From assembly GCA_029563245.1 (NCBI GenBank), contig JAKQSG010000094.1:1-36146 (forward strand): a DNA stretch of 36,146 nt. The letters run 5' to 3'. The position numbers were made by a program, and so were the translations under genes. Shown one piece after another: positions 4,021 through 36,146 of this stretch. Source of the stretch: Candidatus Omnitrophota bacterium (GTDB lineage Bacteria > Omnitrophota > Gorgyraeia > Gygaellales > Profunditerraquicolaceae). Numbering within the stretch: the stretch's first letter is position 1; every line of letters begins with the position of its first letter. A model generated the notes under the pieces. It ran no database searches. It worked only from the letters and a program-made list of their open reading frames with translations, and had not been told where the DNA came from.

Positions 4021-4023
4021 TTT

Positions 4024-6197: not shown

Positions 6198-6266
6198 CTG
6201 GCCTCCTTAAAAGGATTGTAAGATGAAGTGGCTTAACTGTTAGCTAAACTAAAGATATAGTATCAA

Positions 6267-6295
6267 AATGTAACATATTTTTAGGCAGAGGTCAA
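6267..6295 (-). promoter_or_regulatory. Sigma70-like promoter for the sugar ABC / glycosidase operon
   Basis: On the coding strand: TTGACC (6290-6295), a 17-nt spacer, then TACATT (6267-6272). This sits about 70 nt upstream of the SBP start, in the 104-nt gap after the PilZ gene. Confidence 0.45.
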
Positions 6296-6301
6296 GTTTT
6301 T

Positions 6302-6988
6302 TTAGGCTCTTAGTATTCGCGACAAGCCCATCAAATCTGCCCTCTCAAGATCTATCCCTAAGCGATATTCCCCTGAAGAGTCCGGCCTGGACCAGACTAC
6401 ATTCCCCCTGGTATAAAGAGGCTCTCCCTTATCAGGAATCTTAAGCCATGCCTCCAGCGGAGTATTTTGGGCTATCGCGTCCCTAGACCATACACCTATA
6501 CCCTTAGCGCTGATATCGCTAGTCTCTGCCACAACTTCCTGCCCGCTATTTAAATCTAATAATTTAACCGGAAATCTGATATTAAACCTCTGGAATATCC
6601 GACGATCGTCCATACTCTCGCCCCCTTCCTTGATGGCATCACTCCACCAATGCCTGGAGATTTCCTGAGGCACATTATTATAAACAAATTTATAAATATT
6701 TTCTTTATCCTTATCAGTAAGCCTGGTGAACAAAAGCCCGTAAATATTATGGCCATCGCTTTGCCTATGCCAAGCTACCCAGGCCTCGCATTCAAGAAAA
6801 TTATTTTCGGATAGTTGCAGGTTAAACTTTATATAGGTATCTACGGCAAACCTTAGGCCCAGAACAATCTGCAAACCTTTGAAATTAATATCCCTGATCA
6901 GGCAATCGGCAGAAACCACCGCTCCCTCGAGCTTGATCTTAGAGGCTTTATTAATGCGCCATCTGGTTAATCTTCTGCGTTCCTGCAT
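6302..6988 (-). CDS. Tandem PilZ-domain protein (putative c-di-GMP receptor)
   Basis: 228 aa with two PilZ signatures. N-terminal: RRRLTR (RxxxR) plus DINFKG (DxSxxG variant with Asn). C-terminal: RRIFQR plus DISAKG. The start lies 1 nt after the stop of the upstream PilZ gene. Confidence 0.88.
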   Translation of the reverse strand: MQERRRLTRWRINKASKIKLEGAVVSADCLIRDINFKGLQIVLGLRFAVDTYIKFNLQLSENNFLECEAWVAWHRQSDGHNIYGLLFTRLTDKDKENIYKFVYNNVPQEISRHWWSDAIKEGGESMDDRRIFQRFNIRFPVKLLDLNSGQEVVAETSDISAKGIGVWSRDAIAQNTPLEAWLKIPDKGEPLYTRGNVVWSRPDSSGEYRLGIDLERADLMGLSRILRA

Positions 6989-19622: not shown

Positions 19623-22600
19623 AACAATACTACACCCAGGGAAAGATTAAACAACGGACCGGCAAAGGCTATCCTTTTTTCTTGGCGCGGCGTAAAACCA
19701 CAACTCTCCAACGTAGCCACTCCTCCTAAAGCCGTAAGGAGAATCTGGGTAGCGCCAATTCCGTATTTCGCGGCCGACTTTATATGGGCAAATTCATGCA
19801 TAGTAACCAAGGTAAAAATAGAGAATAGAAAAGCTAAAGCAAGAAAACCGTTGCCTGCCGCTAATCCCAAGGCAAAAAAGAAGCTCCAATGTAATTTAAC
19901 CGGAACTTGGCTTATCTTAAAAAGTGTAAACCCTTCATTGAATTTGCTAAAGTATACCCCGGCATGCATCTTAACGGCATCCCCTTCATCTTGAACTCCT
20001 ACAAATTCGCCATTACCATTACGATACGAAAAATACCCAAACTCCCTTTCGCATCCGCTGATTAAATAATGATTAAATAAGACTCTCTTAAAAAAGCCAT
20101 TCTGAGTAGGGGTATGCCCGACAATAAACCAGCAGCTTTTGCTATCATAACCTAAAGCCTCCAGAAAACTGCTTAAGTCATCTTGGGAATAAGAAAATAC
20201 TTCTTCCCCTTCAAGAGAATATTCACAAAAACGCCCCATCAGCAGATTGACTAGCATAGAATTCTTTAAATTGGTAGTAGAGAGATTCCTGATCTTCTGA
20301 AGTTTAAATCTCCCCTTAACTGGCCCGGCATGGGCAGCGACCAGATTATCGGCAATGAGAAGAACCGGGCTTGCCTCTACAAACTTTCTATAAAGATCAA
20401 GGTACTTAGATCCAAAACGATCTTCCAGGGCCTTACGGTAAGGGATACTCTGATCAATAATAAACCCGCAAGGCCCGCTTTTGCTCCAATGATAATTAAT
20501 CAAATCGTGATTACCCAGAATATAATAAAAATTATCCGGATTACTTATCTTTAAATCCATAATACGGCGCATCAGTGCTATAGAGCTATCTGGGTTAGAA
20601 TACAAATCTACAACTAGACCTTCCAGATCTTGCCTTTTCACCCCAGTCTTGGCCCATTTAATGAAATCACCCATTTCTACCCTAACATCCGGAGTCGCAT
20701 GTATGGCATCGCCGAGAATAAATAAGGCTGCCTTTTTATTTCTTATCTTCTCTAAAACAGAGTCTTCCAGGATTTCTTTGCCTTCCACCGTAATTCTCCT
20801 ACGATGGTTCAATAGAGCGTCAAATTTATTGACCCTGCCGTGTAAATCTCCTATTATGATAATTTCAAAATCGCCGGGTGCCTTGCGTAAATCAACTACC
20901 GCCCTGTCCTGATACACGCCAAGCCTCACTGCCTTGATAAACTCGTTTAACCTTGGCAGCTCACTATCAGTTTGCAAGCTATACATGCAAAATACTGAAG
21001 ACCCGCTAACACCACCTTTTATATTTGAATCACTCCAGGTCTCTTTATCCTGATCCCAAACCCTTCCCTTGGAATAAATCTTTAGGCCAGCAAGTCCCTT
21101 GAAAGCATGATTCTTGAAAGGATGTGCGTTAGAAGTAACAAACCCTTTACCCTTGTCCATCGCACATATATAAAGATTATTATGATTTTTATTAAAGAAA
21201 ATAACGATCTTCCCTAAATCATCCCCGTGTCTCCCTACATTAATAGACAAGGCATTTATAAGTTCGCGCAGCCTTTCTAAATCTTTGCCTTCAATCAAGC
21301 CATCTAAAGCAAACACAGCCTCAGGCAAAATATACATTCCACCGCTAAAAATTAAATACCCGTCTTCTTTTAATCTCTCAACAAATGCCTCAGTCAAAAT
21401 CTTTTGTTTATCACTATTTAACCCATCCGCATTATTCCAAATACGCATAAGATTAAGGCAGTCCTGGATAAATATCTGACTCTCTACTCTACGCTTTTCT
21501 TCAGTTCTATTCCTTTTTAAATAGTTAAGCCAACCTAAATCCGGCCTTAAACCGATAGAATTATCTTCCAAGAATTTAATATGGCTGGACAACAGGTGAT
21601 TATCCCTAAGATACTCTAAAGTTCGCTCTCTGACCCTCTCTTCAGATAATCCCGGGTTAACCAAATGATAGAATTCATGGCCTGAGAATATCGCCCTTAA
21701 TTGTTCCGGAGGACCCCGCAAGGTATTAGGGTTAATGCGAAGGATACCATTTACCACCTCAGCCGGAAAAGGTAAAAGATAGTCGATAGCTATCTTATCC
21801 ATACCCAAAACTAAGCCTTCTCGCATAAGAGCGTTTATTCCTCCAAGATAATCAATTATATTCCCAAATTCCCCCTCAGAAGGATTACGCACCAATGAAT
21901 CAACCCCCGCAGGATTCATATGCGCAGGATAAGATTGATGGCTACTATCATTCTGAGAGTAAAGGTTGGCAATAATAATGATTGCCCAAACCGATAATTC
22001 AGGATATGAATAGAGCGCACGGAAGGTCTCGTCATTGGCAACAGCAACCGTAGCCTGAAAGATAGCCTCGTTGTTTTTTATACCTAAAAGGGCATTATTA
22101 TTTTTCTGACGATTTAAGAATAATATTAAATCCTCCACGGAAAGATTAAGTTCTGACCCTTTACGGTAAGGCCTATCTGCAAGCATAATCTCTGCTATAT
22201 CCGCCCAATAGATCAGTTCCCCTAAGAAACGTAACTTCGCATCCTTTATTGCCTGAGGATGATGATGATTTAAGACAAGCGACAGGACTTCTTCTGAAAC
22301 ATCTAACTGCAGCTCATTAATTATTTCTACGGAATAACCTGCATGGGCATTAATCAACTTACGCTGAGGATCATTTTCATCGCGCGAGATTTTCTTATCC
22401 GAAGAGATAAGCTCCCATATTTCACTGTTAAAAATCTTCCCCAGGTCATACAGGGTAAAGGCAATCGCAATTATATCGATATCTCTTCGGCTTAAATTAA
22501 GGATTTCAGCAATCTCTACGGCAATTATCCTCCCCCTATATATATGCCTTATCAGATGATCCAGGTCACCGGATAATCCCTTCATATCAAATACGCTACG

Positions 22601-25600
22601 GTAAAGACCAGCGATTCCTTTTATCTTCAGAATATCGCTATTCGTAATTACTCCATCCTCTTTAGGGCTTACGCCGATTAATTTTAGGGCCGCTGCGAAG
22701 GACCGATCCCCACCAGCCACGGAAGGTAGACCAATCGCTTGTTTATTCCGCAGCAGCCCGGTAAACGAAAACGCTTTCTTTAAGGCTAAAATAAAAGACC
22801 CCCGCTTTCTGCCGGGGCCTCTTTCTATTTTTACGTACCTCTTCCCCAAACTGACCCAACCGCCATCAAAATACCTCAAGAAGACTTCTAATTCCCATAG
22901 GCCGGGATTAGGAAGATAGATCTCATTGTTAAGATAATAATTGCCGTTAAAGAATATATTACCCCGGCAGAATAGCCTGGCCTGCAAAGGCACGCTGCCT
23001 CTTTGATCTCTTAGACGGTATAAAACCTTTGCCTCTATATTCCTTCCTGCCTCTCTATCTAGCCTGGAAACAGCCCTGATACGCTTTTCTGACCCGAAAC
23101 AATCAAGCATAAGCCTGGTATTCCAGGTGCGGTTCTTTAACCCAAGAGTTACCCTGGCTGCCTGTGTCAAACTTGTTTTATAGGTCTTACCCCGGGCAAG
23201 CGAAACTGAGTTAATACTAACAAAACTGGCCAAGTTGCCGGCAGTAGACAGGATTATTCTTTCTGTGGCTTTTCTTATCATGGACAAAAATAGTTCCCTT
23301 CTCCTCCCTGGCCTGCCGTGTAACTTATTCAGGTATATCCTTGAACGCAAAGCGCTTATCCCCATGCTAAAAGCACTGCTCCAGAAACTCATGGTTGATG
23401 TCTCCGGGGAATCAATCCAGAGGATAGGCATCTCTCTTAATCTATACCTTAATGCAGCAGCCCTGCCCAGCCATTCAACATCTCCGGCAAAACCGTAGAC
23501 GAAATCATGGTTAAAACTTACCTTAAGACATCCTGATTCATCGGCTGAAAGAATACCTATCGGAGAGATGCGTTTTATGACCTTTCTACGGAACGCCTTA
23601 AAAGAACGCTGATTATCGCGGATAAACCTCAAATCTTTATATAAAAACCTAACCCAGGCATTAAAACCTACCGTCCCCAAACGGCGGGTGAATTTACGAA
23701 GAGAGACTATCGCTCCGGGTTTACGTATAGAACCCCAAACAAGATCATCCCCCTTATTTACTATACCTTCTAATAATAGCCCGGTCAGCCCCAGGTGGGC
23801 CGAAGGGTCTCCATCGGTATACATTATGATATCCGCCCCCTGGTCTGCGGCTATCTGCATTCCGGCAGCCAGTGCGCCGTGCTTGACCGACCCCATGGCT
23901 ACCTTATCCTCCGCCGACAAGGAATAAAGGCAGATTTTATCCCGCAAATCAACATATTCGCTGCGGCTTAGAATCCCCCGCAATACATCCACTGTCTTCT
24001 GCTGCCCCTGCCCACTGTCATCTCCGTCGTTAACAAATATAAAACGGCCTTTTACCAGAGGGTTCACAGAGAGAAATTCCCTGAAAAACTGCTCTGTCTT
24101 TAACTTAAACCATCCCCTTCCCAGTGGAGGATCCGGGTATTTAGCCTGCCCCCTCCAAAGAGAAATGCATACGGCTATCTCTAAAGGATCGTGGATATTG
24201 AAGACTGTCAGATAAGAATCGATGAACATTCTCGCTTCAGGAAGGATTCCTTTGCTTGGATCAGATACTAATTCTTTAAGAAAAACAGCAATATCTTTAG
24301 CATCGTTACGGTTTAGGGAAATGGCTAATGCCTTACTCAACAAGGCGCATATTGCCTGGTCGGAAAGCACCGCCCTGATTTCAGGGTCGCGATAAGTATC
24401 GACTGCAAATAAATGCAAGAGATTAAGCTTGGCGTCTATTGTTTTACATTCAGAGAAAATAATACCTAAGCGGCTGGCTCTATCCTCTGATAAAAGAACG
24501 CGCCTTAGGCTTTCTCCCGTTAATAAATCAACAGCCTCTCCCCACCAGGGCTTATTAAAATCCTGCATCATCCTTGAAAATTCCAGCATTAAGGCCTCAA
24601 CCGCATCAGCCTTTTCGCTGGAGTTATTAAGAAGGTCTAGGCTCAGGATAAACCAACGGGCAGCATCCCATCCAAACGTACCTATTCCCAGCACATTGGG
24701 TATCGATTCTAATTCCTTTCTACTAAGTTTATTCTTGGTATAAAGCTGATAGCCTTTTAACATAGCGATAAGATTCTCTCGGCTGTATTTCCTACCAACA
24801 CCCTTTCCTCCGGCAAGCAGGGTATTCTTAAACTCCCCTATGCGGGGCTGGCTTGAGCGCGCTTTTTCCCAGTCAAAAAGCGCAATTACAGAATCACCAT
24901 CCCATTTTACATTGCCTAAACTTAAATCACCGTGCAGGATAGAAGAAGGCAGGGAATTATAAGATACATCCGACATCTCCTTAAGAAGATGCTGCATCTG
25001 CTCCTTGATAAACCTGGCAAAGTTTAGAAAGATAAGTTCTCCTTCTTCAAGAAAAGGATTATTCTGCAACTTCTTCTCCAAATTTTCAAAGTCAGAGAAA
25101 GCAGTGATAATATCCTGCGGAGATAATTCCGGCTTGCTGCCGCTAGCCCTGAAGCCCAAGAAAGCATTGTGCAAGAGCGCCGTTAACCTTCCAAGGCTAT
25201 AAAAGTGCTTTGGGGTAGCCTGACTAAAATTAAGTTCTATACCGGATGAAATGTAGTCTTCTAACGTATAATACCAGCTGCCTATCTTAGTAAAATATTC
25301 CCCGCCCCTATTTTTATAAACCAACGGCACAGGAATACCAAAAGATATAGCCCTTTGTATGACCGAAATCACAAATTCTGCTTTTCTACGGCTATCGGTA
25401 ATAAACTTTAAAACAAAGTCACCCTTAGGCGCATGGATTAAAACCGGCCTTCTATTCTCGATTCCGCCCCGTAGAAACTCGTATGTGACCTGCGAAACTT
25501 CACTGGCTCCTATATCGTATTCGGATAGCGCTATGGACAATTTCTCTTCAATATCAACCTGTTCCGTGCGTAGATCGTTTACTTTTGTAGAATGGCTGCG

Positions 25601-28600
25601 CCAGAGTGCAACTTTATTATTAATAGGCTCAGCCTGGGGTTGATAAGGGACAAAGGCATTTCTGTAAACCCTATTGTATTTCTGGGGTTCTCCAGATTCA
25701 TTAAGAAAAGCGAATTTTTCAATCTGCCCGCTTCTAACAATATCAAACATCGGCTTGCCTTTTTTAAATCCGAATTCAGGTATTTCATCTGCTGGCTTGA
25801 CTAAACGTATCAAAGGAATATTCTTGTATCTTGGGTTGGGGATAAACTCAGGGTTGCCGTCTTTACCTTTAACCACCCAGTAAGGAGCGCCATTATGGCG
25901 TTTGATATATTTAAAGCTTGATTGGGCGTTGGTTGAGACCCAGTCAGTCATTACAAATGGAGTGTTACCTATATTAATAGTGATATGTTGATATCCCGGA
26001 GGAAATAAAACATGATCTCCGGGTTCAGCAAAGACTGCCATCACATCCTCTATTTCTTCGTATCCCGGTTTATCGATTGAACTGTCTTCTTCGGGATAAT
26101 TGTGCCTTACCTTAAAAAGCAGGAATATATTACGGCCGTAGTTATTTTCGTAAACCTCGGGAAGGTTAGTCTTGTGATGATGGCCTTCGGTACGGATATA
26201 TTCTTCATAGCGCACACCGTTTAAAAATGCGGGTATTGTTCCGGCAGGTAAAACAGTGACATCGGGCCTTAAGTTATGCGCTTTGATACTATCCCAAAGC
26301 TTCTGGTCATCCCAATAAGGACCCTGTTGGCCGCAGTAAAGTACCTCGTTAGGGTCGCCGTATCGGGTTAAATCTGGCTGCTTAGTAATGTTGCCTTGGC
26401 TGTCTGTATATTCATAAGCCATCATCAGGCTCTTCCACAGGGGAGCTTGGGACATGGTATTTGCTCCGAAGGTCTTATACCAAGGTTGAACCCAAATTCT
26501 TGCCTGCGGACCATAGAGCACTTCCATATCCTTAGGGTCAACAAAACAAGGCAACCCAACCTGTGCCGATAAATCAAGCGTTTTAAAGAACCTGGCTGTA
26601 TCGGCTAAAGCCTTAGCCTCGTCAAACTCATAATTAATTAAATGGCTTTTTAGCTCATGGTAAAATATCTTTTTCTGAAGGTATCCGGATAATTCAAAGA
26701 AATACGGATGGATGTAAATAGTTCTGGCAGCAATATCGCAGGCAGCGACGTTTCCTTGCGTAAAGTTGAAATCATTTGTGCTAAGTAAACGCCAGACGTA
26801 TAAGGAAGGCGGTGCGCGGCCTAAAATGACTTCCAACTCTTCCAAAAGCTTAATTATAACTTCTTCTCTGCCTCGGATTAACTCCGAGGAGAATTTTCCT
26901 CTTAAATTAAACCCTGCCACTTCCACTGCCCCTGACTGCCAGTTCTTACCAAATTTATTAACAGATGCTTCCTGCACTTTAGCAGAGACAGGGAGAGGAT
27001 AAGCATTAGGATTGTTAATATTGGGCGTATCCTTTAACAGCTGCGGGAAGAAACCGCTTGAGTTATATTCCTTAAAAAGATACCTGAGCCTCAAAGATAA
27101 AATCTCGGCTATATTAGGATGAGCATTCTTTGTCTGATAGTACGCCGCTTCCAGGAAAAGAACAACCCCTCTTATCCCGAGATACTCTTCCAAAGCTAAG
27201 AATATATCTTCAAAGACGATGCCAAGGCCTTCGTTAATGGCGATGATTACCTCCGATTCCCTTATTTTCTGAATTAACCCGCCGAAAGAGGCTATCTCTA
27301 TCCTGATCATACCTCCGTCTGGCTTAATCTTGAAATCTTTTAGAGTTACGAAACGGGGGTACAGCCTTCTCTCAAAAAGGCTATCAAAAGCTATAATACA
27401 CTGCATAAGATTTATTTCGTCGTCCTTAATATCCAACAGCTCGGATAAGAACCTCTTATCCTCATCGCTTAAAGACTGAAAGCCTATCTTAGAAAGCTCC
27501 CTCTCCATGGACAAACGATGGCTTACGTAAAGGTGGCTGTCCAACCCAAACCTCTCTGCGATTACCCTGTAAACATCCTGAGCAGGAGTATAATATCTGA
27601 TCAAAGATTTGGCGATCTCTCTCTTTAGGCGCATCATATCTTCCCCGGACAAATCCTTCCCCAGATACCTGCCCGTAGACAATACCAGCTGCAGGGAAGG
27701 AGTAGAGAACATTTCCCTTATCTTCAATCCCACATAATCCCCTTCAGATATAGAGATATACGATGCCCCCCTCAAGACAATAGGGTCGTAAGAATGGCTC
27801 AACAGCCGATACTCCTGCATCGCTCTCTTGAATCCGATTCTTGCCAAGACTAATTCAGCATTCTTTATCTGGATACCCGAATCAATTAAATACCTTGCCA
27901 CCAGTTTTCTGGATTCCCCCCTGACTTTCTCCCCTCCGGCAAAACAAACCTCAAGCCCTGATATTCTTCTCCCGGAAAGATCCCTAAAATCCTCCTCTAA
28001 TTCCTCATAATCAGTCTCTGCCCTCAAATCCTTGACATTTTTAGTGATGTCAAAAGAAAAATCTTCCCTTATCCTGAAAATGTCCTTAACAGAATTATCA
28101 ATATATTTCCTGAGTTCCTCCTCCCAGCCATATTTGTTTTTATTGCAAGCTTTGGCCCAGTCACAGACCCTCTCCCTGGCCTTCTGTAATTCACATATAA
28201 ATAAATCAGCCTGCTCTGGTATGAAATCATGCCACTTAAAAACCTGGCCCAAGTCCAATGCGCCTACACGTCCCACCGAAGGATCGTAGCCGTAATTCTC
28301 AGGCTTAATATCGAAATTTATTATTCCTCTTAATATCTTGGCCCTGATACTTAATAACCAACAGTCTATAAGTAATTTGGCTTTGTCTAAATCACCCTCC
28401 TCTATAGCCTCGGCTAGAATGCCGTGGCATCTTCTTGCCTTAAGATCAAAATCCCACAATCCTTCCTCGAATAACACTGAAACAAATTTCTGCACTACTG
28501 CCCTTTTTACCGTTTCATGGCTTACCCTTCCTTCCTCATCAACCACATTTATTTCCAGGTCATCGAAAGTAAGGTATCTTATAGCTAAATGCCCGTGGTA

Positions 28601-31600
28601 TTTCTGGGCCAGCTGATAACTTTCCATGGCATTAACCGTTATCCCGGGAAGACGAAACGCTATCTTCGCGGGAGCTTTTAAATCTTTAACAATAATCGTG
28701 TTGTCTCTATTTAGATAAATGTGGTTTGTATCCGCTCCCGCGGTTCGGCTGCTGAATACTTCCTCTTTCAGGCAATTCCTGAAGGCCATACCGATCATTT
28801 CTATGATTTTATCTACGTCTATGCCCGCCTCACGGAAATCATCCGCAAACTGATGCAGACTGAAATGTCTGTACATCTCTACCAAACAACCTGCTAACCT
28901 GTTGTAACCATCCAAGTAAGAAAAGCCGAGGCTATAACCTCTTTTATAAAATACCTGCCGAAAATACCTTGTTTCTCCCGCATGCAGAGCATAAAGATTA
29001 ACTATCTCCCGCCCGCTGTTAAAATCGTATCCCGTAATCACTACCTTATCCGGCATAACGCCGCTAAAGTAAACCTTTAGATGAGGGAGAAACTCATAAA
29101 CCCTCCTTCTTAACTCTTCGGGAAGATGCAAGTCTTTTTCGACTAAGGATATTTGCTCAACCTCTTTGCGTACTTTATTTATAAAAACCTGAGAATCCAA
29201 GAATTTTCTTAGTTTGTCAAAACCTTTTTCTTTTATGTAGGCATTCATTTCCAAAAGCGCGGATTCAGTAAAATTTATACCCTCCCCAAGCGCTACAACC
29301 GAAGGAGGGGCATCCGCAGGCGGACCGGATGAAAATACTTTGATCCCCTGGATACCTGTAACCGCCAGGTCATTCCCTTCCTGCCCAAACTCATCCCCGA
29401 AATAAATTATATTCTGCGGCTGTATACCGTATTTTGCGTATATATATTTCAGAGCCTCAGCCTTATTGATCCCTGCCGGGGTTACGGCCAGGGTAGTTTT
29501 TCCTTCTAGAACAACCTCAATCCCGAATATGCCCTTAGACTCAAAGAGATCCCTTATATGTTGAGCCAAAGCCTGCCTGATCTTCAATGAAAGCTCCGTA
29601 TCCTCCTTTAATTCCTCTATCCTCACAACAACGCGGGTAATTCTATCCTCAAACAGAAACTTCTCAGAAGGTATTGATTCTTCCAAAGAAACCATAGCTA
29701 TACACTCTCTGATAATAGAAAATACCTTAGCCTTATCCAAAGGAAGCCCTTTCCGATAAACAAGGTCCTCCCGTCTCACCCCGTTCTCAAAATAAAACAC
29801 CTGGGTACTGGAATTTGCAGCAATAATGAAATTATCGCTATGGTCCTTAAAGGGCTCTACTATCCTGGCGATATTGGCCTCATCAAGCATATTGCCGGTA
29901 TTGATACCCACCAGCATCCCCTTATCCAGCAATCCCCGGACTTGATTAATCATGGAGTCCTCTAACGGTTTTCTGCGAAGGGCGAGCGTCCCGTCGATAT
30001 CAAACATTGCAATATTTCGGGGTCGTGCCTTAATCGGGCCAACCTTTACTGAATCACCCACGAGCTGAAATGTCCTCTTCTTAATCTCATCGATTGCTTC
30101 CAGAGCAAAGTTGGTAACCTTCTGCTCTTCAAGCGATCTTATAGCCAAAAGGTCCTCGTCTTTTCTGCCCTCAAACTCCGCAGCCTTAACCTCCGCCTGA
30201 GTATAGAAACGCATCTTAGGTTCTGTTCCCGAAGGCCTGATAATAAGCCATGAACCATCTTCAAATATAAATTTATAACCCGGCTCATTAAACTTAGGCT
30301 CTGTAATATCTACGCCGCGATGCGCCTCTTTTATAACTTTCCCTGCTATTGTAGCCTTGCTTGCGGACCTGGCTTGACGGTAAATTTCTTCGACTTTCTT
30401 TATCACCTTATCGCGGTCAACCTTCGCCGTAGGCCCGGCAAGGCTATACTGTTCATTCGCGCCCACAAAACATCCGAAAGTCCTCCATAATTTTATATAT
30501 GCATCCCATATAGAAAATCCCTTTGAACGCACATATTCAAATAGCTCCAGCATTACAACCGCAGCCAAAAGGCCGTCTTTCTCCAGAGTGTGCCCTCCTA
30601 AAGAAACTCCGTTTGACTCCTCAAAACCACCGAGTATCCTTGCGCGGGCAAAAGAAAATATCTCTTCTATTGCCTGCTTCATCGATGGTATATGCATATC
30701 CCCTATAATATTGCCCAGGCCTTCTTTGTAACGGTCTCCGTAAGATTCGAAATCAAAGGCATAACTATTAAACCAATCCCTCATAATAATCTCATCTAAG
30801 GATTCTTCCGCTATCTTGCCAAAGCCTACCGGAGGCCTTCTTACATGAAAACCGTAGGCACGCGCTATCCTCTCAATCAAGTCAGTAGTAACCCAGGTAG
30901 CCATTACAAACCCGTCCCTCATTAACCCCTGGTATGCCTTGCCAAGCTTTCCTTCAGAAGCCAAATCGTGCATAAATTCAATGCGGGACCATAATAAAAA
31001 TGCCCATAAATCGTTTGCCTTCATTACCTGCCAATTGCCCTGGTTATCCTTAAAAGCTATGCCGCATCTGTCTGCGTCAGGATCAGTAGCCAATACTATA
31101 TCAAAACCTTTTTCAGTAGCATATTCAATTGCCGGGCCTAATACACGTTTGTCTGCCGGATCCGGAGAAAGCGGCCTGCCATTACCATCTACAAGCCTGT
31201 GATCAGGAAAATTACCGTTAAACCCTTCGTGCTCGGAAAATACGGAATATTCATATCCCAAGTCCTTTAGAATCCCAGGCAAGACTGCCTGCCCCGTACC
31301 AAAAACAGGGTCATAAAGAACCTTTAACGTGGTGGGCTTCCCCGGAACTAATAGGTGTGACCTAATCTTAGAGGAGAAATACTTATCAAAATCTTCATCC
31401 GGCCCTAACATCATAACCGGCTTATTGTCCTGGCCTAAAGGCAGTGTATTGATATCATCAACGCTATCCATAGAAACCAGAGCTATCTCTCTTATAATAG
31501 CTAACCTCTGAACCCCAAATAACTGCGCACCAATCTCATTGCCGATCTTAAAACCGGTATCGCTCTTAGGATTATGGGAAGCGGTAATATAAATATAGCA

Positions 31601-34600
31601 ATACGCTGCCTTATGAAGCACGGCCAGCGCGATCTCCGATATAGGCCGGGGTTCATTAAACCAATAAACCCTTATTCCCTTCTTAAGTAAAATATCCTTA
31701 GATATCTGCGCTATCTCCCTTGACCCCTTACGCACGTCAAAACCAACCACAACCCCCCTCTCCTGCAAGCCGTTTTTAACTATATAGTTTGCCACAGCCA
31801 AAGTATAACGGCCGGCTACATCCTGATTAATCCTGTTGGGACCGGGCAAATAAGGAATTAGTTCCCCATCCAGGTCATTTTCCAATCCGCGCTTACCGCG
31901 TATACCGGCAGTCCCAAACTCGACCTCTTCTCGATAACTCTCCATAAGCAGATCCCAACGCTTATTTTCTATCTCTCTAACCAACTCATTCTTTAAATAA
32001 GGATTATACCCTCTATCGCCCAGGTTATCGCTTACGCTTAAAATAGCAAAACCTACTTCACGCAAAGTAATCTTGCCTTCGCGGTGCATCTGAGATAAAT
32101 ACCTATAAAATTCGCGCAGCTGTTGGGGTATCTGCCTTTCTCCGCGCAGCACAAGAAAAACCTCACCTACAAAACTACCTTTACCCTTGCCGGTAAAAAT
32201 ACCGGTGGCGCTCTCCTCATTATCCTTGGGTACATAATAAAAATCCGGTGCCTTTTTATTTTCATTAATATCGTAAAGATTGGCTAGATTAATAAAATAA
32301 GAGGCATCCCTGAAAACCTTTTTCTCCTTAAATCCTTTTTCTAAGAAATCGAGGACGTCGAGACGGAATTGCCTACCTATTAATATATAGACTTCCAATT
32401 CTGCCAAGCCTGCGTCAAGTTCTTCATCGAAATCAGCCAGGTCGCTTAATATTCTAGGGGTATGCTTATTTTCGTGAGCAAGTATAGCAAATAGTATCGC
32501 TGCCTTTGCCCGGAAGAAATGATTAAGCTTTAACCGCGAAGCGGCAGGCTTGAACGACTCTTCTATCACCTCTTCAAATATAGAATCTAAATAAATAGTA
32601 TTGTTTAATATACAAGCGAATCTTCCGAAATTACGAGAGATAGCAATATTAATACCCCTTCCTGCAAGTTCATCTAAAGAAATAGATAATATGCGCCTTA
32701 AGAGACCTGTATAGCAGGCGCCTGGCCCCAGATATATCCTGCCTTTATCCTTTCCTATCAAATCAATTAACTGGTCTTTTATATCTAAAAGCCTATAAAC
32801 CTTACCGGTTACATTAGCCTGCGCAAATATATCAGCCTCATTCTGAGCAAGATGATTATGGTAGCCGATAAAAACACTCTTCCCCGCAGCCCCATGATTA
32901 GTTATTATCTTCTTTACTGCGTAGCTAACCAACGAAGCAATAGAAACCTTAAACTCCTCAGGAAACTCCGAGGGCAAAGCAACCGATTTTGTCACGAATA
33001 AGCTCTGCGGAGGCATTAATCGCTTTTTATCATTTATATATTTTGGATCAATGCCATAACCCTTATCTAAGAATTTTACGGCATCAGCCGCTTTTATCCC
33101 GGTCTCAAAAGGCTTTAACCCTCTTGCTAATTTCGCATGGATTACTCCGGAAAATACCCTCCCCCAAGATAAACCCAGCTCCTTAACCAATACATAAGCC
33201 GCAGCCAGTAATGTGCCCCCGGAAGAAGTTTCATCGTCAATAACAAAGGCCCAACAATCACGAAGGTCTACCCCGCCTACTGATAATATTTTCTGCTTGT
33301 CTTCACCTAAGATATAAGGCGGTATGCGTACTTCCCTTGGACTTATCCTGACCTTATCCATATACCCAGAATATACCTTGATTCCCGAAGCCGGATAATT
33401 ATCCTTGATATATTTCTCTAAAAGCTGTGCGGCCTCCCGGACATAATTGGAAGCTCCGTCATCGGGTGATAATATCAAGATAGGGTGGCGGATAAACTCT
33501 TCAAGCTCTCCCTTAAGCCCTAACGTGCTATGAAGCCAATCGAACATCTTCTCGGCCACCTGCACAAATGCATTCAGGTTATAAAGGCCGATGCCTGAAA
33601 AATCGATTCTACCGCTACCATTACCGTAATGCACATTTAAAACAAAATGATTATCCGTCAAGGCATTGATCACTTTAAGCATAGTAAAAGCACTTACGCC
33701 CTCTCCGTCCTTAAACACCTTATCCTGCCTGGAATACCCCGCATAAGTATTAATCAACGAAATGCTGGCAACCCCTTCACGGCGTAAAGCTGCAAGCATA
33801 AGCCATAATTCCGCAATATCGAGATTATTCTCAGTACTATGCAACAATACTATATTCTTACCCTTTACCCCTTCGGGAATATTTATAGTCCAGGCAAAAG
33901 GATTATTGAATTCCTTGCGGATACCGACCCTTTTCGGGGTAGCATTAATGACCTCGGCAGCTCTGATTGCATCATACTCCAGACGGCTATGCTGGTATAA
34001 AATCATATCTACTTGCACAGAATCGCTTTTTCCACTTACCTTCGCCTCAGAGCCCGAATAAGGGCTTGAGGCAGATCTCTTGTCAGAATAAACCACAGTA
34101 TCATAGAAGATAGCAAGTATATCCTCCAGGATATCTACTCCACGAGGACTATCTAAAGAAAGATTGATTTTATCTGCACCGTATCTTCTTAAAGAATCCA
34201 TCAACAAAACTACCTCCACAAGATCATCCGCTGATTCAATTTTATAGGAGACATCTACCTGCTTGCCCTTTAGCGCTAGGGGATTAAGAATTCTTAAATA
34301 TATTTCGCCGTCAGGAAATTTAGATGTTGCCACTCTAATCTGGACATCCTCAGCCTTGACGTTTAATTTAGAAGGAAGGTCTACAGAAATCCATCCGCAG
34401 CTGTCTCCCCAGGGAGAACGGAAAGAACCTTTACCATCCAAGACAAATAAAACAGCATAATCCATCTTTTGAACATCCGCTTGGGGGAACAAATCCTTCA
34501 GGCTCTCTTGCATATCATAAAGGCGCATGATCCCGTCTTCTCCGGAACTATCATAGCTACGGTTCCAGATAGACGGAGAGAAATAAATCTTCCCTCCTTC

Positions 34601-36146
34601 CGGATTCACCTGTTTCTTTAAAGACTCCGCGTGTTTCTCCAATTCCCCGCGGTAGATCAAAATGTTCATGGAAAAAACTATATCAGCCGGGCCGAAATTA
34701 TCCTTATCCGCATCCCCAAAGACAAATACTACATCCTGGTCATTACGGTTTTTTTCTGCCTCAATCAAAGCCGCGAAATCACGGTCTATTCCAACTACCG
34801 TCAAATCAACAAATCCCTCTTTGCGGTAATATTCCGCCATCCCTCTGCTAGCCTCTCCGTATTGGCATCCTATATCCAAGATACGCAGGGCGCTCTTCTT
34901 CGGCCAGGGAGAAAGATCTACTGACTTGACAATCTTTGCAATCTGCTCTGATTGTGCGCTTGAAATATCTTTAGAGATTAACGGGATAATTTTTCTAACG
35001 ATTAAACTACGTACCAATAAGGAATCATCATTCAATGCAGATAAAAGCAGCGCGGAGAGTATATCATCCGGTTTTAAGGCGAATAACTCTTTCAACATCA
35101 AGGCAGACTTTGCCCTGAGCCAAGCATCCTTTTCTCCCTGCAGTATAGAGATTAGAAGAGGAATCCCTTCTTCAGAGAATTGGGTAAAGAAGGCTATCGC
35201 CCTTTCCTTCTCTCCCTGGTTAGCCTTACGACTTGAGCCAATATCCTCTATACGGTAGTAAGAATTACGGACTATATCCTTTAATAAGAGCGCCGTGTCA
35301 TCCCGGGCTTTTTCTTCATCAATTATGCCTCTTGCGATATGTGAAATTAATTCATGATAGAGGATTTTCAACTGTAATTGCTCCAAGGCGAGCCCCTCGC
35401 CTAATAGGTCTTCAGAAGAAATAGTGAAGAAATATGGATTTAGGTATACAGTCCTGGTGGGGATATCGCAGGCAGCGACCTTACCTTTTGTAAGCCTTGA
35501 ATCGTTGGTAATGATAAGTGTCCAGTTGGCAATCTCTGGAGGAGCACGGCCTAAAACATGCTCTAATTCTGCCAGGCGTTTAAGAATAACTTCGGCCTGG
35601 GCTTTAGTTAATTCCTTAGGCAGCTGGTTTTCTACCTTAAAACCTTTTACCTCTATCGCCTGTGAACTCCAGCCTGCCCCAAGCTGACCCTCTGATACCC
35701 TATTAGCCGCATCAGGTAATGGTAACGGGTAAGTACTTAAGGGAAATCCGCTTACAGACTTATTTAACTCCGGAATTACTACTGAAGGGCGCCCGTCAAA
35801 GTACACTGCCTCCCATCTCCTCCCGTCATGGATGAGTACTCCGGCATTCCTGCCAAAGCCGGGTTTAGGGAATAAATTCACATTAACCACCCGGGCACCA
35901 GGGCTAAAACGTATATCATAACCTTCCTTATGCCCCACTACCATAGGTAGAAGATATATTTCATTTATACGGCTTAGCTCTCCGTCAAAACAAGCCCACA
36001 TAAGGCCTCCCGGCATATAATCTGTTTCTCCGTATAATTTTGGCCCAAAATGGGCGTTGCCACGGTTAAAGATTACATCCGAAAAATCATTATTTTCTAC
36101 TCCCCTAACCAACCGGGAATTAAACTCTGCGGCTATATGCTCCAGC
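19574..36146 (-). CDS. N-terminal part (at least 5,523 codons, 5' end possibly outside the window) of the same giant mosaic protein: repeated HELxSH module, SAM-MTase, PRPP-synthetase-like, phosphohexomutase, HAD-IIB, kinase-like, cupin PGI, APH-type kinase, GT2, HD-GYP-like, GHKL-like, metallophosphoesterase, M50 N-terminal half
   Basis: The ORF track gives 19574-36112 with a TTG start. The same frame has no stop from 36112 to the window edge (LEHIAAEFNSR-LVRGVENN...). Motifs I translated: ILDIGCQYG, YAGYSRQDK, VIDDETSSGGT, TASHNP/DPDADR/GFEESNG/RPSGTEPK, FDIDGTL, FDIKPENYG, TEGHHH...EVY plus PPGYQHITIN, HGDLSLGNV, FVNDGDDSG/YTDGD, ADRPYRKG, GDLHG/GNHD/GHTP, MHEFAH. Confidence 0.9.
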   Translation of the reverse strand, partial: LEHIAAEFNSRLVRGVENNDFSDVIFNRGNAHFGPKLYGETDYMPGGLMWACFDGELSRINEIYLLPMVVGHKEGYDIRFSPGARVVNVNLFPKPGFGRNAGVLIHDGRRWEAVYFDGRPSVVIPELNKSVSGFPLSTYPLPLPDAANRVSEGQLGAGWSSQAIEVKGFKVENQLPKELTKAQAEVILKRLAELEHVLGRAPPEIANWTLIITNDSRLTKGKVAACDIPTRTVYLNPYFFTISSEDLLGEGLALEQLQLKILYHELISHIARGIIDEEKARDDTALLLKDIVRNSYYRIEDIGSSRKANQGEKERAIAFFTQFSEEGIPLLISILQGEKDAWLRAKSALMLKELFALKPDDILSALLLSALNDDSLLVRSLIVRKIIPLISKDISSAQSEQIAKIVKSVDLSPWPKKSALRILDIGCQYGEASRGMAEYYRKEGFVDLTVVGIDRDFAALIEAEKNRNDQDVVFVFGDADKDNFGPADIVFSMNILIYRGELEKHAESLKKQVNPEGGKIYFSPSIWNRSYDSSGEDGIMRLYDMQESLKDLFPQADVQKMDYAVLFVLDGKGSFRSPWGDSCGWISVDLPSKLNVKAEDVQIRVATSKFPDGEIYLRILNPLALKGKQVDVSYKIESADDLVEVVLLMDSLRRYGADKINLSLDSPRGVDILEDILAIFYDTVVYSDKRSASSPYSGSEAKVSGKSDSVQVDMILYQHSRLEYDAIRAAEVINATPKRVGIRKEFNNPFAWTINIPEGVKGKNIVLLHSTENNLDIAELWLMLAALRREGVASISLINTYAGYSRQDKVFKDGEGVSAFTMLKVINALTDNHFVLNVHYGNGSGRIDFSGIGLYNLNAFVQVAEKMFDWLHSTLGLKGELEEFIRHPILILSPDDGASNYVREAAQLLEKYIKDNYPASGIKVYSGYMDKVRISPREVRIPPYILGEDKQKILSVGGVDLRDCWAFVIDDETSSGGTLLAAAYVLVKELGLSWGRVFSGVIHAKLARGLKPFETGIKAADAVKFLDKGYGIDPKYINDKKRLMPPQSLFVTKSVALPSEFPEEFKVSIASLVSYAVKKIITNHGAAGKSVFIGYHNHLAQNEADIFAQANVTGKVYRLLDIKDQLIDLIGKDKGRIYLGPGACYTGLLRRILSISLDELAGRGINIAISRNFGRFACILNNTIYLDSIFEEVIEESFKPAASRLKLNHFFRAKAAILFAILAHENKHTPRILSDLADFDEELDAGLAELEVYILIGRQFRLDVLDFLEKGFKEKKVFRDASYFINLANLYDINENKKAPDFYYVPKDNEESATGIFTGKGKGSFVGEVFLVLRGERQIPQQLREFYRYLSQMHREGKITLREVGFAILSVSDNLGDRGYNPYLKNELVREIENKRWDLLMESYREEVEFGTAGIRGKRGLENDLDGELIPYLPGPNRINQDVAGRYTLAVANYIVKNGLQERGVVVGFDVRKGSREIAQISKDILLKKGIRVYWFNEPRPISEIALAVLHKAAYCYIYITASHNPKSDTGFKIGNEIGAQLFGVQRLAIIREIALVSMDSVDDINTLPLGQDNKPVMMLGPDEDFDKYFSSKIRSHLLVPGKPTTLKVLYDPVFGTGQAVLPGILKDLGYEYSVFSEHEGFNGNFPDHRLVDGNGRPLSPDPADKRVLGPAIEYATEKGFDIVLATDPDADRCGIAFKDNQGNWQVMKANDLWAFLLWSRIEFMHDLASEGKLGKAYQGLMRDGFVMATWVTTDLIERIARAYGFHVRRPPVGFGKIAEESLDEIIMRDWFNSYAFDFESYGDRYKEGLGNIIGDMHIPSMKQAIEEIFSFARARILGGFEESNGVSLGGHTLEKDGLLAAVVMLELFEYVRSKGFSIWDAYIKLWRTFGCFVGANEQYSLAGPTAKVDRDKVIKKVEEIYRQARSASKATIAGKVIKEAHRGVDITEPKFNEPGYKFIFEDGSWLIIRPSGTEPKMRFYTQAEVKAAEFEGRKDEDLLAIRSLEEQKVTNFALEAIDEIKKRTFQLVGDSVKVGPIKARPRNIAMFDIDGTLALRRKPLEDSMINQVRGLLDKGMLVGINTGNMLDEANIARIVEPFKDHSDNFIIAANSSTQVFYFENGVRREDLVYRKGLPLDKAKVFSIIRECIAMVSLEESIPSEKFLFEDRITRVVVRIEELKEDTELSLKIRQALAQHIRDLFESKGIFGIEVVLEGKTTLAVTPAGINKAEALKYIYAKYGIQPQNIIYFGDEFGQEGNDLAVTGIQGIKVFSSGPPADAPPSVVALGEGINFTESALLEMNAYIKEKGFDKLRKFLDSQVFINKVRKEVEQISLVEKDLHLPEELRRRVYEFLPHLKVYFSGVMPDKVVITGYDFNSGREIVNLYALHAGETRYFRQVFYKRGYSLGFSYLDGYNRLAGCLVEMYRHFSLHQFADDFREAGIDVDKIIEMIGMAFRNCLKEEVFSSRTAGADTNHIYLNRDNTIIVKDLKAPAKIAFRLPGITVNAMESYQLAQKYHGHLAIRYLTFDDLEINVVDEEGRVSHETVKRAVVQKFVSVLFEEGLWDFDLKARRCHGILAEAIEEGDLDKAKLLIDCWLLSIRAKILRGIINFDIKPENYGYDPSVGRVGALDLGQVFKWHDFIPEQADLFICELQKARERVCDWAKACNKNKYGWEEELRKYIDNSVKDIFRIREDFSFDITKNVKDLRAETDYEELEEDFRDLSGRRISGLEVCFAGGEKVRGESRKLVARYLIDSGIQIKNAELVLARIGFKRAMQEYRLLSHSYDPIVLRGASYISISEGDYVGLKIREMFSTPSLQLVLSTGRYLGKDLSGEDMMRLKREIAKSLIRYYTPAQDVYRVIAERFGLDSHLYVSHRLSMERELSKIGFQSLSDEDKRFLSELLDIKDDEINLMQCIIAFDSLFERRLYPRFVTLKDFKIKPDGGMIRIEIASFGGLIQKIRESEVIIAINEGLGIVFEDIFLALEEYLGIRGVVLFLEAAYYQTKNAHPNIAEILSLRLRYLFKEYNSSGFFPQLLKDTPNINNPNAYPLPVSAKVQEASVNKFGKNWQSGAVEVAGFNLRGKFSSELIRGREEVIIKLLEELEVILGRAPPSLYVWRLLSTNDFNFTQGNVAACDIAARTIYIHPYFFELSGYLQKKIFYHELKSHLINYEFDEAKALADTARFFKTLDLSAQVGLPCFVDPKDMEVLYGPQARIWVQPWYKTFGANTMSQAPLWKSLMMAYEYTDSQGNITKQPDLTRYGDPNEVLYCGQQGPYWDDQKLWDSIKAHNLRPDVTVLPAGTIPAFLNGVRYEEYIRTEGHHHKTNLPEVYENNYGRNIFLLFKVRHNYPEEDSSIDKPGYEEIEDVMAVFAEPGDHVLFPPGYQHITINIGNTPFVMTDWVSTNAQSSFKYIKRHNGAPYWVVKGKDGNPEFIPNPRYKNIPLIRLVKPADEIPEFGFKKGKPMFDIVRSGQIEKFAFLNESGEPQKYNRVYRNAFVPYQPQAEPINNKVALWRSHSTKVNDLRTEQVDIEEKLSIALSEYDIGASEVSQVTYEFLRGGIENRRPVLIHAPKGDFVLKFITDSRRKAEFVISVIQRAISFGIPVPLVYKNRGGEYFTKIGSWYYTLEDYISSGIELNFSQATPKHFYSLGRLTALLHNAFLGFRASGSKPELSPQDIITAFSDFENLEKKLQNNPFLEEGELIFLNFARFIKEQMQHLLKEMSDVSYNSLPSSILHGDLSLGNVKWDGDSVIALFDWEKARSSQPRIGEFKNTLLAGGKGVGRKYSRENLIAMLKGYQLYTKNKLSRKELESIPNVLGIGTFGWDAARWFILSLDLLNNSSEKADAVEALMLEFSRMMQDFNKPWWGEAVDLLTGESLRRVLLSEDRASRLGIIFSECKTIDAKLNLLHLFAVDTYRDPEIRAVLSDQAICALLSKALAISLNRNDAKDIAVFLKELVSDPSKGILPEARMFIDSYLTVFNIHDPLEIAVCISLWRGQAKYPDPPLGRGWFKLKTEQFFREFLSVNPLVKGRFIFVNDGDDSGQGQQKTVDVLRGILSRSEYVDLRDKICLYSLSAEDKVAMGSVKHGALAAGMQIAADQGADIIMYTDGDPSAHLGLTGLLLEGIVNKGDDLVWGSIRKPGAIVSLRKFTRRLGTVGFNAWVRFLYKDLRFIRDNQRSFKAFRRKVIKRISPIGILSADESGCLKVSFNHDFVYGFAGDVEWLGRAAALRYRLREMPILWIDSPETSTMSFWSSAFSMGISALRSRIYLNKLHGRPGRRRELFLSMIRKATERIILSTAGNLASFVSINSVSLARGKTYKTSLTQAARVTLGLKNRTWNTRLMLDCFGSEKRIRAVSRLDREAGRNIEAKVLYRLRDQRGSVPLQARLFCRGNIFFNGNYYLNNEIYLPNPGLWELEVFLRYFDGGWVSLGKRYVKIERGPGRKRGSFILALKKAFSFTGLLRNKQAIGLPSVAGGDRSFAAALKLIGVSPKEDGVITNSDILKIKGIAGLYRSVFDMKGLSGDLDHLIRHIYRGRIIAVEIAEILNLSRRDIDIIAIAFTLYDLGKIFNSEIWELISSDKKISRDENDPQRKLINAHAGYSVEIINELQLDVSEEVLSLVLNHHHPQAIKDAKLRFLGELIYWADIAEIMLADRPYRKGSELNLSVEDLILFLNRQKNNNALLGIKNNEAIFQATVAVANDETFRALYSYPELSVWAIIIIANLYSQNDSSHQSYPAHMNPAGVDSLVRNPSEGEFGNIIDYLGGINALMREGLVLGMDKIAIDYLLPFPAEVVNGILRINPNTLRGPPEQLRAIFSGHEFYHLVNPGLSEERVRERTLEYLRDNHLLSSHIKFLEDNSIGLRPDLGWLNYLKRNRTEEKRRVESQIFIQDCLNLMRIWNNADGLNSDKQKILTEAFVERLKEDGYLIFSGGMYILPEAVFALDGLIEGKDLERLRELINALSINVGRHGDDLGKIVIFFNKNHNNLYICAMDKGKGFVTSNAHPFKNHAFKGLAGLKIYSKGRVWDQDKETWSDSNIKGGVSGSSVFCMYSLQTDSELPRLNEFIKAVRLGVYQDRAVVDLRKAPGDFEIIIIGDLHGRVNKFDALLNHRRRITVEGKEILEDSVLEKIRNKKAALFILGDAIHATPDVRVEMGDFIKWAKTGVKRQDLEGLVVDLYSNPDSSIALMRRIMDLKISNPDNFYYILGNHDLINYHWSKSGPCGFIIDQSIPYRKALEDRFGSKYLDLYRKFVEASPVLLIADNLVAAHAGPVKGRFKLQKIRNLSTTNLKNSMLVNLLMGRFCEYSLEGEEVFSYSQDDLSSFLEALGYDSKSCWFIVGHTPTQNGFFKRVLFNHYLISGCEREFGYFSYRNGNGEFVGVQDEGDAVKMHAGVYFSKFNEGFTLFKISQVPVKLHWSFFFALGLAAGNGFLALAFLFSIFTLVTMHEFAHIKSAAKYGIGATQILLTALGGVATLESCGFTPRQEKRIAFAGPLFNLSLGVVLFCPCFSLLLLQHGILD
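19577..19646 (-). other. Frame-change junction: 70 nt in which both giant reading frames are open; contains coding-strand T5 (19609-19613) and T4 (19621-19624) runs
   Basis: Frame A stops at TAG 19574-19576. Frame B (-1 relative to A) is open from just after TAA 19647-19649. One added T in the T4 run gives ...GVVLFLSLFFIAPFTAW.... A -1 slip on the U run gives ...LFCPCFFIAPFTAW.... Either product is a plausible continuous transmembrane helix of an M50 domain. Confidence 0.7.
26578..27001 (-). repeat. Copy 2 of the same intragenic module
   Basis: YPLPVSAKVQEASVNKFGKNWQSGAVEVAGF...LGRAPPSLYVWRLLSTNDFNFTQGNVAACDIAARTIYIHPYFF...IFYHELKSH...FDEAKALADTARFFKTL. HELKSH is at 26642-26659. Confidence 0.8.
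35272..35731 (-). repeat. Copy 1 of an intragenic ~140-150-aa protein module (YPLP...EV.GF...LGRAPP...TND...G.VAACDI..RT.Y..PYFF...YHEL.SH...DE.KA..DTA)
   Basis: Translated by hand. HELISH is at 35339-35356. By eye it is about 40% identical to copy 2. The two copies share an almost identical nucleotide core, atatcgcaggcagcgac, encoding VAACDI. Confidence 0.8.

Follow-up and report, generated by a model that had tools for sequence, protein, structure and literature searches.

The window analysed here is a stretch of 36,146 nucleotides from Candidatus Omnitrophota bacterium (assembly GCA_029563245.1, contig JAKQSG010000094.1, positions 1 to 36,146). Its minus strand encodes a giant multi-enzyme protein in which a module of about 150 residues, marked by an HELxSH motif, occurs twice. 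The module is a previously unannotated family, almost confined to Omnitrophota, and comparison of its predicted fold and sequence profile with known proteins indicates that it is very probably derived from the zincins, within the minigluzincin / M48-M56 / YgjP / SprT-like group. The best overall explanation, to which we give a probability of roughly 0.55, is that the family consists of unannotated zincin-like metallopeptidases that would act on the giant proteins.

A repeated module with a conserved HExxxH motif

The first-pass annotation of the window, made from the sequence alone, had described two homologous copies of the module in the giant protein. Both are present where it had placed them, on the minus strand, and BLASTP aligns them at 45% identity over 151 columns (E-value 2e-46); the plus-strand reading of the module coordinates gave stop-ridden translations and was discarded. 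The shared motifs it had listed (YPLP, GRAPP, TND, VAACDI, PYFF, YHEL.SH and DE.KA..DTA) are all real. When the giant-protein open reading frames (ORFs) of the window, ORF A and ORF B, were compared with themselves fragment by fragment, the two copies proved to be the sole strong internal repeat besides HEAT repeats and a short membrane-hairpin repeat. A family hidden Markov model (HMM) of 85 instances, run unfiltered against the window proteins at E ≤ 10, returned the two copies only, with an envelope for copy 1 at residues 105-305 of ORF A (E-value 1.5e-57).

A word-indexed protein search recovered only two relatives, both complete, small, stand-alone ORFs (213 and 294 residues) on short contigs; the family itself emerged from an exhaustive search and from scans of contigs. 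The exhaustive HMMER scan, over 1.84 billion cluster representatives, yielded 135 proteins, of which 43 have E-values below 1e-30. Most of these proteins are thousands of residues long (maximum 7,976) and they contain up to 5 copies each, with successive copies spaced 199-2,727 residues apart. In species-representative genomes there are 63 loci, nearly all labelled Omnitrophota; the remaining labels are metagenome-assembled genomes assigned to Planctomycetales/Planctomycetia, one Patescibacteria and one 'uncultured bacterium'. Metagenome contigs, a source that the first-pass annotation had suggested scanning, added 26 further loci. The module-bearing ORFs usually span the whole 20-kb stretch of a locus, and the copies, sometimes in tandem, reach a maximum of 7 in one ORF (L018). 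The Omnitrophota chromosomal contigs on which module loci lie are up to 1.17 Mb in length.

Neither single copies nor a set of 45 members retrieved anything usable from Pfam, NCBIfam, PHROGs or PDB sequences, and the description of the module as uncharacterised holds against Pfam (2025), NCBIfam (2026) and the sequences in the PDB. Nor is the module described in those passages of two preprints on giant Omnitrophota proteins that match its terms. Its position between enzyme cassettes, first seen in the window protein, recurs in many other giant proteins. The 330-residue flanks of more than 100 instances contain many enzyme families, none of them dominant (examples are Glucosamine_iso, GT5, GPI, PGM/PMM, HAD, ADK, GGDEF, PGK and radical SAM), and the NCBI names of the host proteins follow whichever other domain gets recognised. 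One stand-alone homologue (P0002) has a TPR-like region at its N-terminus, ahead of the module. The ORF upstream of it (L001, 30-347, plus strand) ends in '...GVFGFDLILGEKSSLYTIEVNSG' and resembles an ATP-grasp C-terminus.

The conservation figures cover 164 instances whose parent proteins had been clustered at 50% identity, and they are reported in the ORF-A numbering of copy 1. The residues of the motif are each conserved in about 90% of the family (H253, 92%; E254, 90%; S257, 89%; H258, 89%). Further along, E266 is conserved at 81%, A269 at 96%, D272 at 86% and T273 at 93%, while upstream of the motif Q247 reaches 90% and the His of 'HPYFF' (Asn225 in copy 1, His3135 in copy 2) reaches 92%. 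The Cys of AACDI, which had been singled out together with the motif residues, fared differently: it is conserved in just 56% of instances and is thereby ruled out as a core ligand or nucleophile. The annotation's caution over the spacing of the motif was apt, as 120 of the 164 instances have HExxxH and 2 have HExxH; the module thus departs from the HExxH on the active-site helix that is the hallmark of the superfamily.

The intact H-E-x-x-x-H motif is found in 125/143 instances. Its Glu and second His are lost together (both are gone in 13 instances, one alone in 3 and 2; Fisher p = 6e-14), and the downstream Glu, found in 101 of 116 instances with an intact motif (87%), is kept in 4 of 14 with a broken one (29%). 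Since these residues disappear together, we infer that the His, Glu and His of the motif and the downstream Glu work as one site, and that this site is degenerate in a minority of copies. The residue before the second His is nearly always small (Ser in 128, Ala in 5 and Gly in 3 of about 140 instances). A divergent member of the family (P0017, residues 762-944) carries 'RHEFSHL', which has the canonical HExxH spacing and may be a natural revertant or an intermediate.

Predicted fold and relationship to minimal zincins

Copy 2 was modelled with AlphaFold2 from an alignment of 45 diverse instances, giving a mean predicted local distance difference test (pLDDT) score of 92.4 and a predicted template-modelling (pTM) score of 0.87; an earlier run with 4 sequences was of poor quality (pLDDT 66.7). 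The N-terminal extension of the model comprises a confidently placed YPLPVS segment, a helix (15-25) and a strand (34-37). The core that follows has a helix (48-68), three strands (78-83, 94-97 and 102-105) and a short helix (107-111), after which a helix spanning 114-130 holds HELKSH at 123-128. A last helix (136-156) starts at Glu136 and holds Ala139, Asp142 and Thr143. These elements fit the zincin core of a helix, a three-stranded sheet, an active-site helix and a second C-terminal helix, as defined by Iyer et al. (2017; PMC5512222). The zincin-like arrangement of helices and strands, on which the first-pass annotation had staked its proposal, is therefore present in the predicted structure.

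Surveying the PDB with Foldseek placed minigluzincins (selecase, proabylysin and projannalysin) at all ten of the best matches, with probabilities of 0.38-0.87. Among the predicted viral structures of BFVD, the named leading matches were IrrE-N-like, peptidase, metallopeptidase and SprT-like, amid uncharacterised or unnamed entries. The ranking of the modelled fold is consistent across these searches, yet the scores alone are no proof.

A second module family in the same giant proteins provides an indirect route to the known peptidases. Its consensus, DRxPxxEE..AFGG..PAEV..ILYVNPNTLRGPPEQLKVIF.GHELxHL, contains a canonical HExxH, and one member lies in ORF A of the window. Like the first module, this family occurs in giant proteins, is reiterated (3 copies in one ORF of L046, at residues 565-692, 1235-1361 and 2099-2225) and has the same pattern of strand 3, helix, Glu and Thr, which for the two families together can be written HExx(x)H-x7-E-x6-T. 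It differs in its HExxH spacing, in its N-terminal half (DRxPxxEE..AFGG) and in a closer tie to selecase, SprT-like and YgjP-like proteins. It is also without a Pfam match above threshold, and single members match Pfam weakly (SprT-like, 0.0017; YgjP-like, 0.0075; M56, 0.17). Among all PDB sequences hmmsearch links it to selecase (E-value 1.4e-4), and in profile comparisons with hhalign it matches the selecase-family alignment at 93% (E-value 2.9e-7) and the module at 89% (E-value 2.3e-6, 67 columns). The triangle is closed by a direct match of the module to the selecase family at 66% (E-value 5.5e-5), with 32% identity over 41 columns. The module takes part in three of the alignments, and in each its 'HELxSH' faces 'HEL-xH' of the partner. 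Because HExxxH pairs in gapped fashion with HExxH, the extra residue is best read as a one-residue insertion inside the motif.

We take the zincin origin of the module as well supported because fold topology, fold-search ranking and the profile triangle converge on it, and the likeness to minimal zincins (SprT / YgjP(DUF45) / M48-M56) that had been suggested from the sequence is borne out by all three. Searched directly, the models SprT-like (PF10263), YgjP-like (PF01863), Peptidase_M48 (PF01435) and Peptidase_M56 (PF05569) gave no match to either window copy at E ≤ 10 or to the 45 members. A match of the module profile to a MarR regulator among PDB sequences (E-value 0.007) has no motif correspondence and was set aside as spurious.

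Four more divergent look-alikes of the module had also been listed in the first-pass annotation. The strings HENKH, HEFYH, RHEAKKH and HEFGH do occur at the coordinates given for them, but only the GHEFYH region, which is the second-family module described above, is backed as a remote relative. The other three, HENKH (32462-32476), RHEAKKH (17208-17231) and HEFGH (12954-12968), were rejected as demonstrated relatives, with hhalign values below 8% against either family. Each of these regions has one to three local homologues and no Pfam or meaningful PDB sequence match, and they may be independent zincin-like sites.

Minigluzincins (selecase MJ1213, proabylysin and projannalysin) are soluble minimal relatives of M48/M56, and the module resembles them in its core of about 100 residues, with a helix, a three-stranded sheet, an active-site helix and a following helix. 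The alignment with selecase spans strands 2-3 and the motif helix, where 'KIASISLTNKTIYINKN...AHELLHL' stands opposite 'NVAACDIAARTIYIHPYFF...YHELKSHL'. Unlike the minigluzincins, the module has HExxxH in place of HExxH and an N-terminal extension of about 45 residues containing YPLxVP, and it resides in giant proteins, whereas minigluzincins are archaeal proteins of about 110 residues. The residues past the motif differ as well: selecase has an invariant His 7 residues on, and the module a Glu 8 residues on.

The arrangement of the module has a parallel in the polyvalent proteins of phages, prophages and conjugative elements, whose zincin peptidases comprise 12 clades and which contain 1-5 zincin domains 'often interspersed between other domains'; one subgroup of these has HEXXXH with a predicted helix bend, and autoproteolytic release of domains is their proposed role (Iyer et al. 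2017; PMC5512222). The module is likewise interspersed, in 1-7 copies, in very large multidomain proteins. The partners of the polyvalent-protein zincins are anti-host effectors, whereas the hosts of the module are chromosomal Omnitrophota genes with housekeeping-type sugar-phosphate and nucleotide enzymes, and the module has no significant sequence match to the Pfam phage metallopeptidase models (E-value about 0.1). The module adds a new, divergent family to a well-known superfamily. Polyvalent proteins already show this kind of architecture; the motif spacing of the module is unusual, and its biological setting is new.

An HExxxH motif binds metal and supports catalysis in DPP III (M49), the tubulin carboxypeptidases TMCP/MATCAP and TldD (M103), which are large proteins of other architecture than the module. 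In DPP III the second His is preceded by a small residue (Gly, in HELLGH), and in the module the corresponding residue is Ser, Ala or Gly in 136 of about 140 instances. Membership of these families was nevertheless rejected in each case. DPP III is a two-lobe protein of about 700 residues with HEXXGH and a second motif, EEXR(K)AE(D); the module has about 150 residues and a downstream DExxAxxDT, and shows no Pfam, PDB sequence or fold match to it. TldD has a non-zincin fold with a Cys as third ligand; there is no sequence or fold match of the module to TldD/PmbA (M103), and the Cys of the family is conserved at 56%. With MATCAP the module has the motif spacing alone in common, and neither its sequence nor its fold matches.

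Proposed activity, role and alternatives

The module is laid out as an N-terminal extension that opens with YPLxVP, followed by the zincin core, in about 150 residues. The predicted active-site helix bears H-E-x-x-S-H, and the next helix opens with the conserved Glu (D-E-x-x-A-x-x-D-T). In this arrangement the two His residues and the downstream Glu could hold a metal ion, probably Zn2+, with the conserved His after strand 3 as an alternative third ligand, and the Glu of the motif would act as a general base that activates water. The small Ser side chain, together with a local distortion of the helix, may accommodate the extra residue, as in other HExxxH peptidases. On balance, the module is slightly more likely than not to be an active metallopeptidase.

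Our best guess of its role is limited proteolysis of giant multi-enzyme proteins, in cis or in trans, by analogy with the zincin domains of phage and plasmid polyvalent proteins. This is favoured because a host protein contains 1-7 copies, set between unrelated enzyme cassettes, and because the module also exists on its own; the stand-alone ORFs show that it is an autonomous unit, which could act in trans. That a module processes the very protein that contains it is a tentative proposal, held with appreciably less conviction than activity as such. Its most explicit form, which we offer as speculation, is a bacterial 'polyprotein' strategy in which the giant chain would be cut by its own HExxxH modules, perhaps near the YPLxVP boundary; such cutting would yield the sugar-phosphate and nucleotide enzymes in stoichiometric sets. 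Of the YPLxVP-like motifs in 277,368 residues, 75 lie at module N-termini and 2 lie elsewhere, a confinement that rules out YPLxVP as a cleavage motif dispersed along the proteins. Should YPLxVP be cut at all, it would be as a cis site at the boundary of each module; it may equally be structural.

Several observations weigh against an active peptidase that acts on the giant proteins. The Foldseek matches in the PDB were not significant (E-values 0.2-1.3, over about 60-90 columns, with target-normalised TM-scores of 0.39-0.51), nor were those in BFVD (E-values of 0.13 or higher). The direct profile link of the module to a known family is modest (66%), and the members of the family all fall short of the Pfam zincin models (the best, DUF2201_N and PhageMetallopep, are at E-values of about 0.1). 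An i/i+5 spacing of the two His residues puts their side chains on different faces of a regular helix. The candidate third-ligand Glu is conserved in 81% of instances overall, copy 1 is without the family His after strand 3 (Asn225), and in about 10% of instances the motif is destroyed, so that some copies of the module must be non-catalytic. The 277,368 residues contain no 'orphan' YPLxVP-like sites to serve as sites of trans cleavage. Finally, for the processing of giant proteins West-Roberts et al. put forward C39 and S8 domains, leaving the question open; in the passages of the literature that concern processing, these are the only enzymes proposed so far.

Part of this evidence would also fit a zincin-derived pseudo-enzyme that serves as a spacer, docking element or chaperone-like organiser between cassettes and has no catalytic activity. 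The spacing of the motif is non-canonical, copy 1 has Asn225 in place of the family His, about 10% of instances are without the motif altogether, no active peptidase model is matched significantly, and the domain is reiterated in the manner of a scaffold unit. We nonetheless consider this reading unlikely. The His, Glu, His and downstream Glu are about 80-90% conserved and are co-lost (p = 6e-14), as expected for a working site; complete stand-alone ORFs occur; and HExxxH is catalytically competent in M49, TMCP and TldD.

Somewhat less probable again is an active metallopeptidase whose substrates are not the giant protein but other proteins, such as prey or host proteins, or substrates of general turnover or regulation. 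The existence of stand-alone forms is in keeping with this, as is the absence of YPLxVP-like motifs outside the modules, so that no common inter-cassette cleavage motif was found, and Omnitrophota have been proposed, in the passages of the literature on their lifestyle, to be predators or parasites with hydrolase-bearing giant proteins. The modules of the window protein, however, probably act in the cytoplasm, as predicted from sequence: no membrane segment is predicted in residues 1-5400 of ORF A, which include both copies, and the neighbouring PRPP synthase, PGM and kinases use cytoplasmic substrates, which makes extracellular attack unlikely here. A cytoplasmic location favours processing or turnover of the giant protein over attack on prey. 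Up to 7 copies beside unrelated cassettes are also hard to square with a single external substrate.

A metal hydrolase of zincin-like fold with a non-protein substrate (for example a YbeY-like RNase, or an amidase or esterase tied to sugar-phosphate chemistry) is improbable: YbeY-type proteins (1tvi, 1oz9) were among the matches of the first, low-confidence model and the neighbours are overwhelmingly enzymes of sugar and nucleotide metabolism, but the YbeY matches vanish with the high-confidence model, where peptidases alone lead, the profile links point to peptidase families, and the adjacent enzyme type is not fixed, as that of a metabolic partner should be.

Few known genes are as long as the giant genes of Omnitrophota, and in the passages that address it the literature leaves open whether their products function as single chains or are cleaved. 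With up to seven copies per protein, between enzyme cassettes, the module is a concrete candidate for the processing of giant proteins. If the speculative polyprotein reading is true, the modules would play in cells the part that polyprotein proteases play in viruses, and the question whether the giant proteins work as a whole or as separate pieces would be answered. The family profile can be used at once to annotate much of the 'dark' sequence that these proteins contain. The module would also add to the zincin active sites that have HExxxH, beside an HExxH sister family in the same proteins, and the pair offers a natural system for studying how an extra residue is accommodated.

The host gene and its surroundings

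The features of the giant gene are collected in Table 1. ORF A as listed has 5,512 codons (19574-36112), and its frame runs on as 'LEHIAAEFNSR' upstream of the listed TTG. An orthologue of the giant protein (P0012, MDD4982281.1; locus L003, JAQTTQ010000061.1) shares 76% identity with it across copy 1; on the upstream side the orthologue is longer by at least 1,227 residues, which include a metallophosphoesterase. Because ORF A is open at the edge and the orthologue is longer upstream, we conclude that the giant gene reaches past the window (36113-36146), and the open edge also means that copy 1 is not close to the N-terminus of the protein.

Table 1. Coordinates of the giant gene and of its zincin-like modules in the window
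Feature	Position	Strand	Basis or remark
Giant host ORF A	19574..36146	-	open at the right edge of the window
Module copy 1, zincin-like domain with HELISH, ORF-A residues 126-285	35258..35737	-	translation
Copy 1 N-terminal YPLPLP (family consensus YPLxVP)	35714..35731	-	family conservation
Copy 1 HELISH (H253, E254, S257, H258), putative metal-binding/catalytic motif	35339..35356	-	family conservation
Copy 1 Glu266, candidate third ligand, 8 residues past the second His	35315..35317	-	conservation, co-loss with the motif
Module copy 2, ORF-A residues 3036-3185, AlphaFold2-modelled copy	26558..27007	-	translation; HMM E-value 5e-55
Copy 2 HELKSH, ORF-A residues 3152-3157, on model helix 114-130	26642..26659	-	predicted structure
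Copy 2 Glu3165, opens the second C-terminal helix, candidate third ligand	26618..26620	-	model, conservation
Copy 2 His3135 of 'IHPYFF', end of strand 3; 92% in the family, Asn in copy 1	26708..26710	-	conservation
Second-family module, ORF-A residues 4741-4870, canonical HEFYH at 21665-21679	21503..21892	-	profile comparison
ORF B, 3,844 codons: second half of M50, PAS, HEAT repeats	8088..19622	-	Pfam domains

The order of domains in ORF A is a metallophosphoesterase tail, module copy 1, a methyltransferase, a PRPP-synthase-like domain, PGM/PMM I-IV, HAD and module copy 2, followed by a cupin GPI, an APH kinase, HD, the second-family module, a metallophosphoesterase and the first half of M50. 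A single Peptidase_M50 profile is divided between the two ORFs, with positions 1-99 in ORF A (HEFAH) and 159-217 in ORF B (NLLPVFPLDGG), and the junction (19574-19640) is a 49-base overlap with T-runs. Given one M50 domain split across them and the T-runs at the junction, ORFs A and B probably form a single gene of over 9,300 codons that a one-base shift has interrupted; the shift is either a real frameshift or an assembly error. The giant protein belongs to the class that a 2026 preprint, in its passages on giant Omnitrophota proteins, describes as the 'multi-enzyme metabolic cluster'.

ORF B has an internal repeat of its own, in which 14703-14957 and 11457-11690 on the minus strand (residues 1556-1640 and 2645-2722) are 35% identical. 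This short repeat consists of an 'L.EGHN.SG' motif and then two hydrophobic helices (a membrane hairpin), and it was not found in any other giant protein fetched for comparison. After the HEAT array, the C-terminus of ORF B (8088-8250, minus strand) is a Pro-rich tail of low complexity (…PITVPRSNFVNPGITPRIPTYIPPIRYTPPPMRNLN). The minus-strand region downstream of the giant gene (863-6988) contains a PilZ-domain gene and encodes the solute-binding protein and two permeases of an ABC sugar-uptake set as well as a GH2-like TIM-barrel glycosidase, a gene content that agrees with the reported nearness of giant Omnitrophota genes to carbohydrate import systems.

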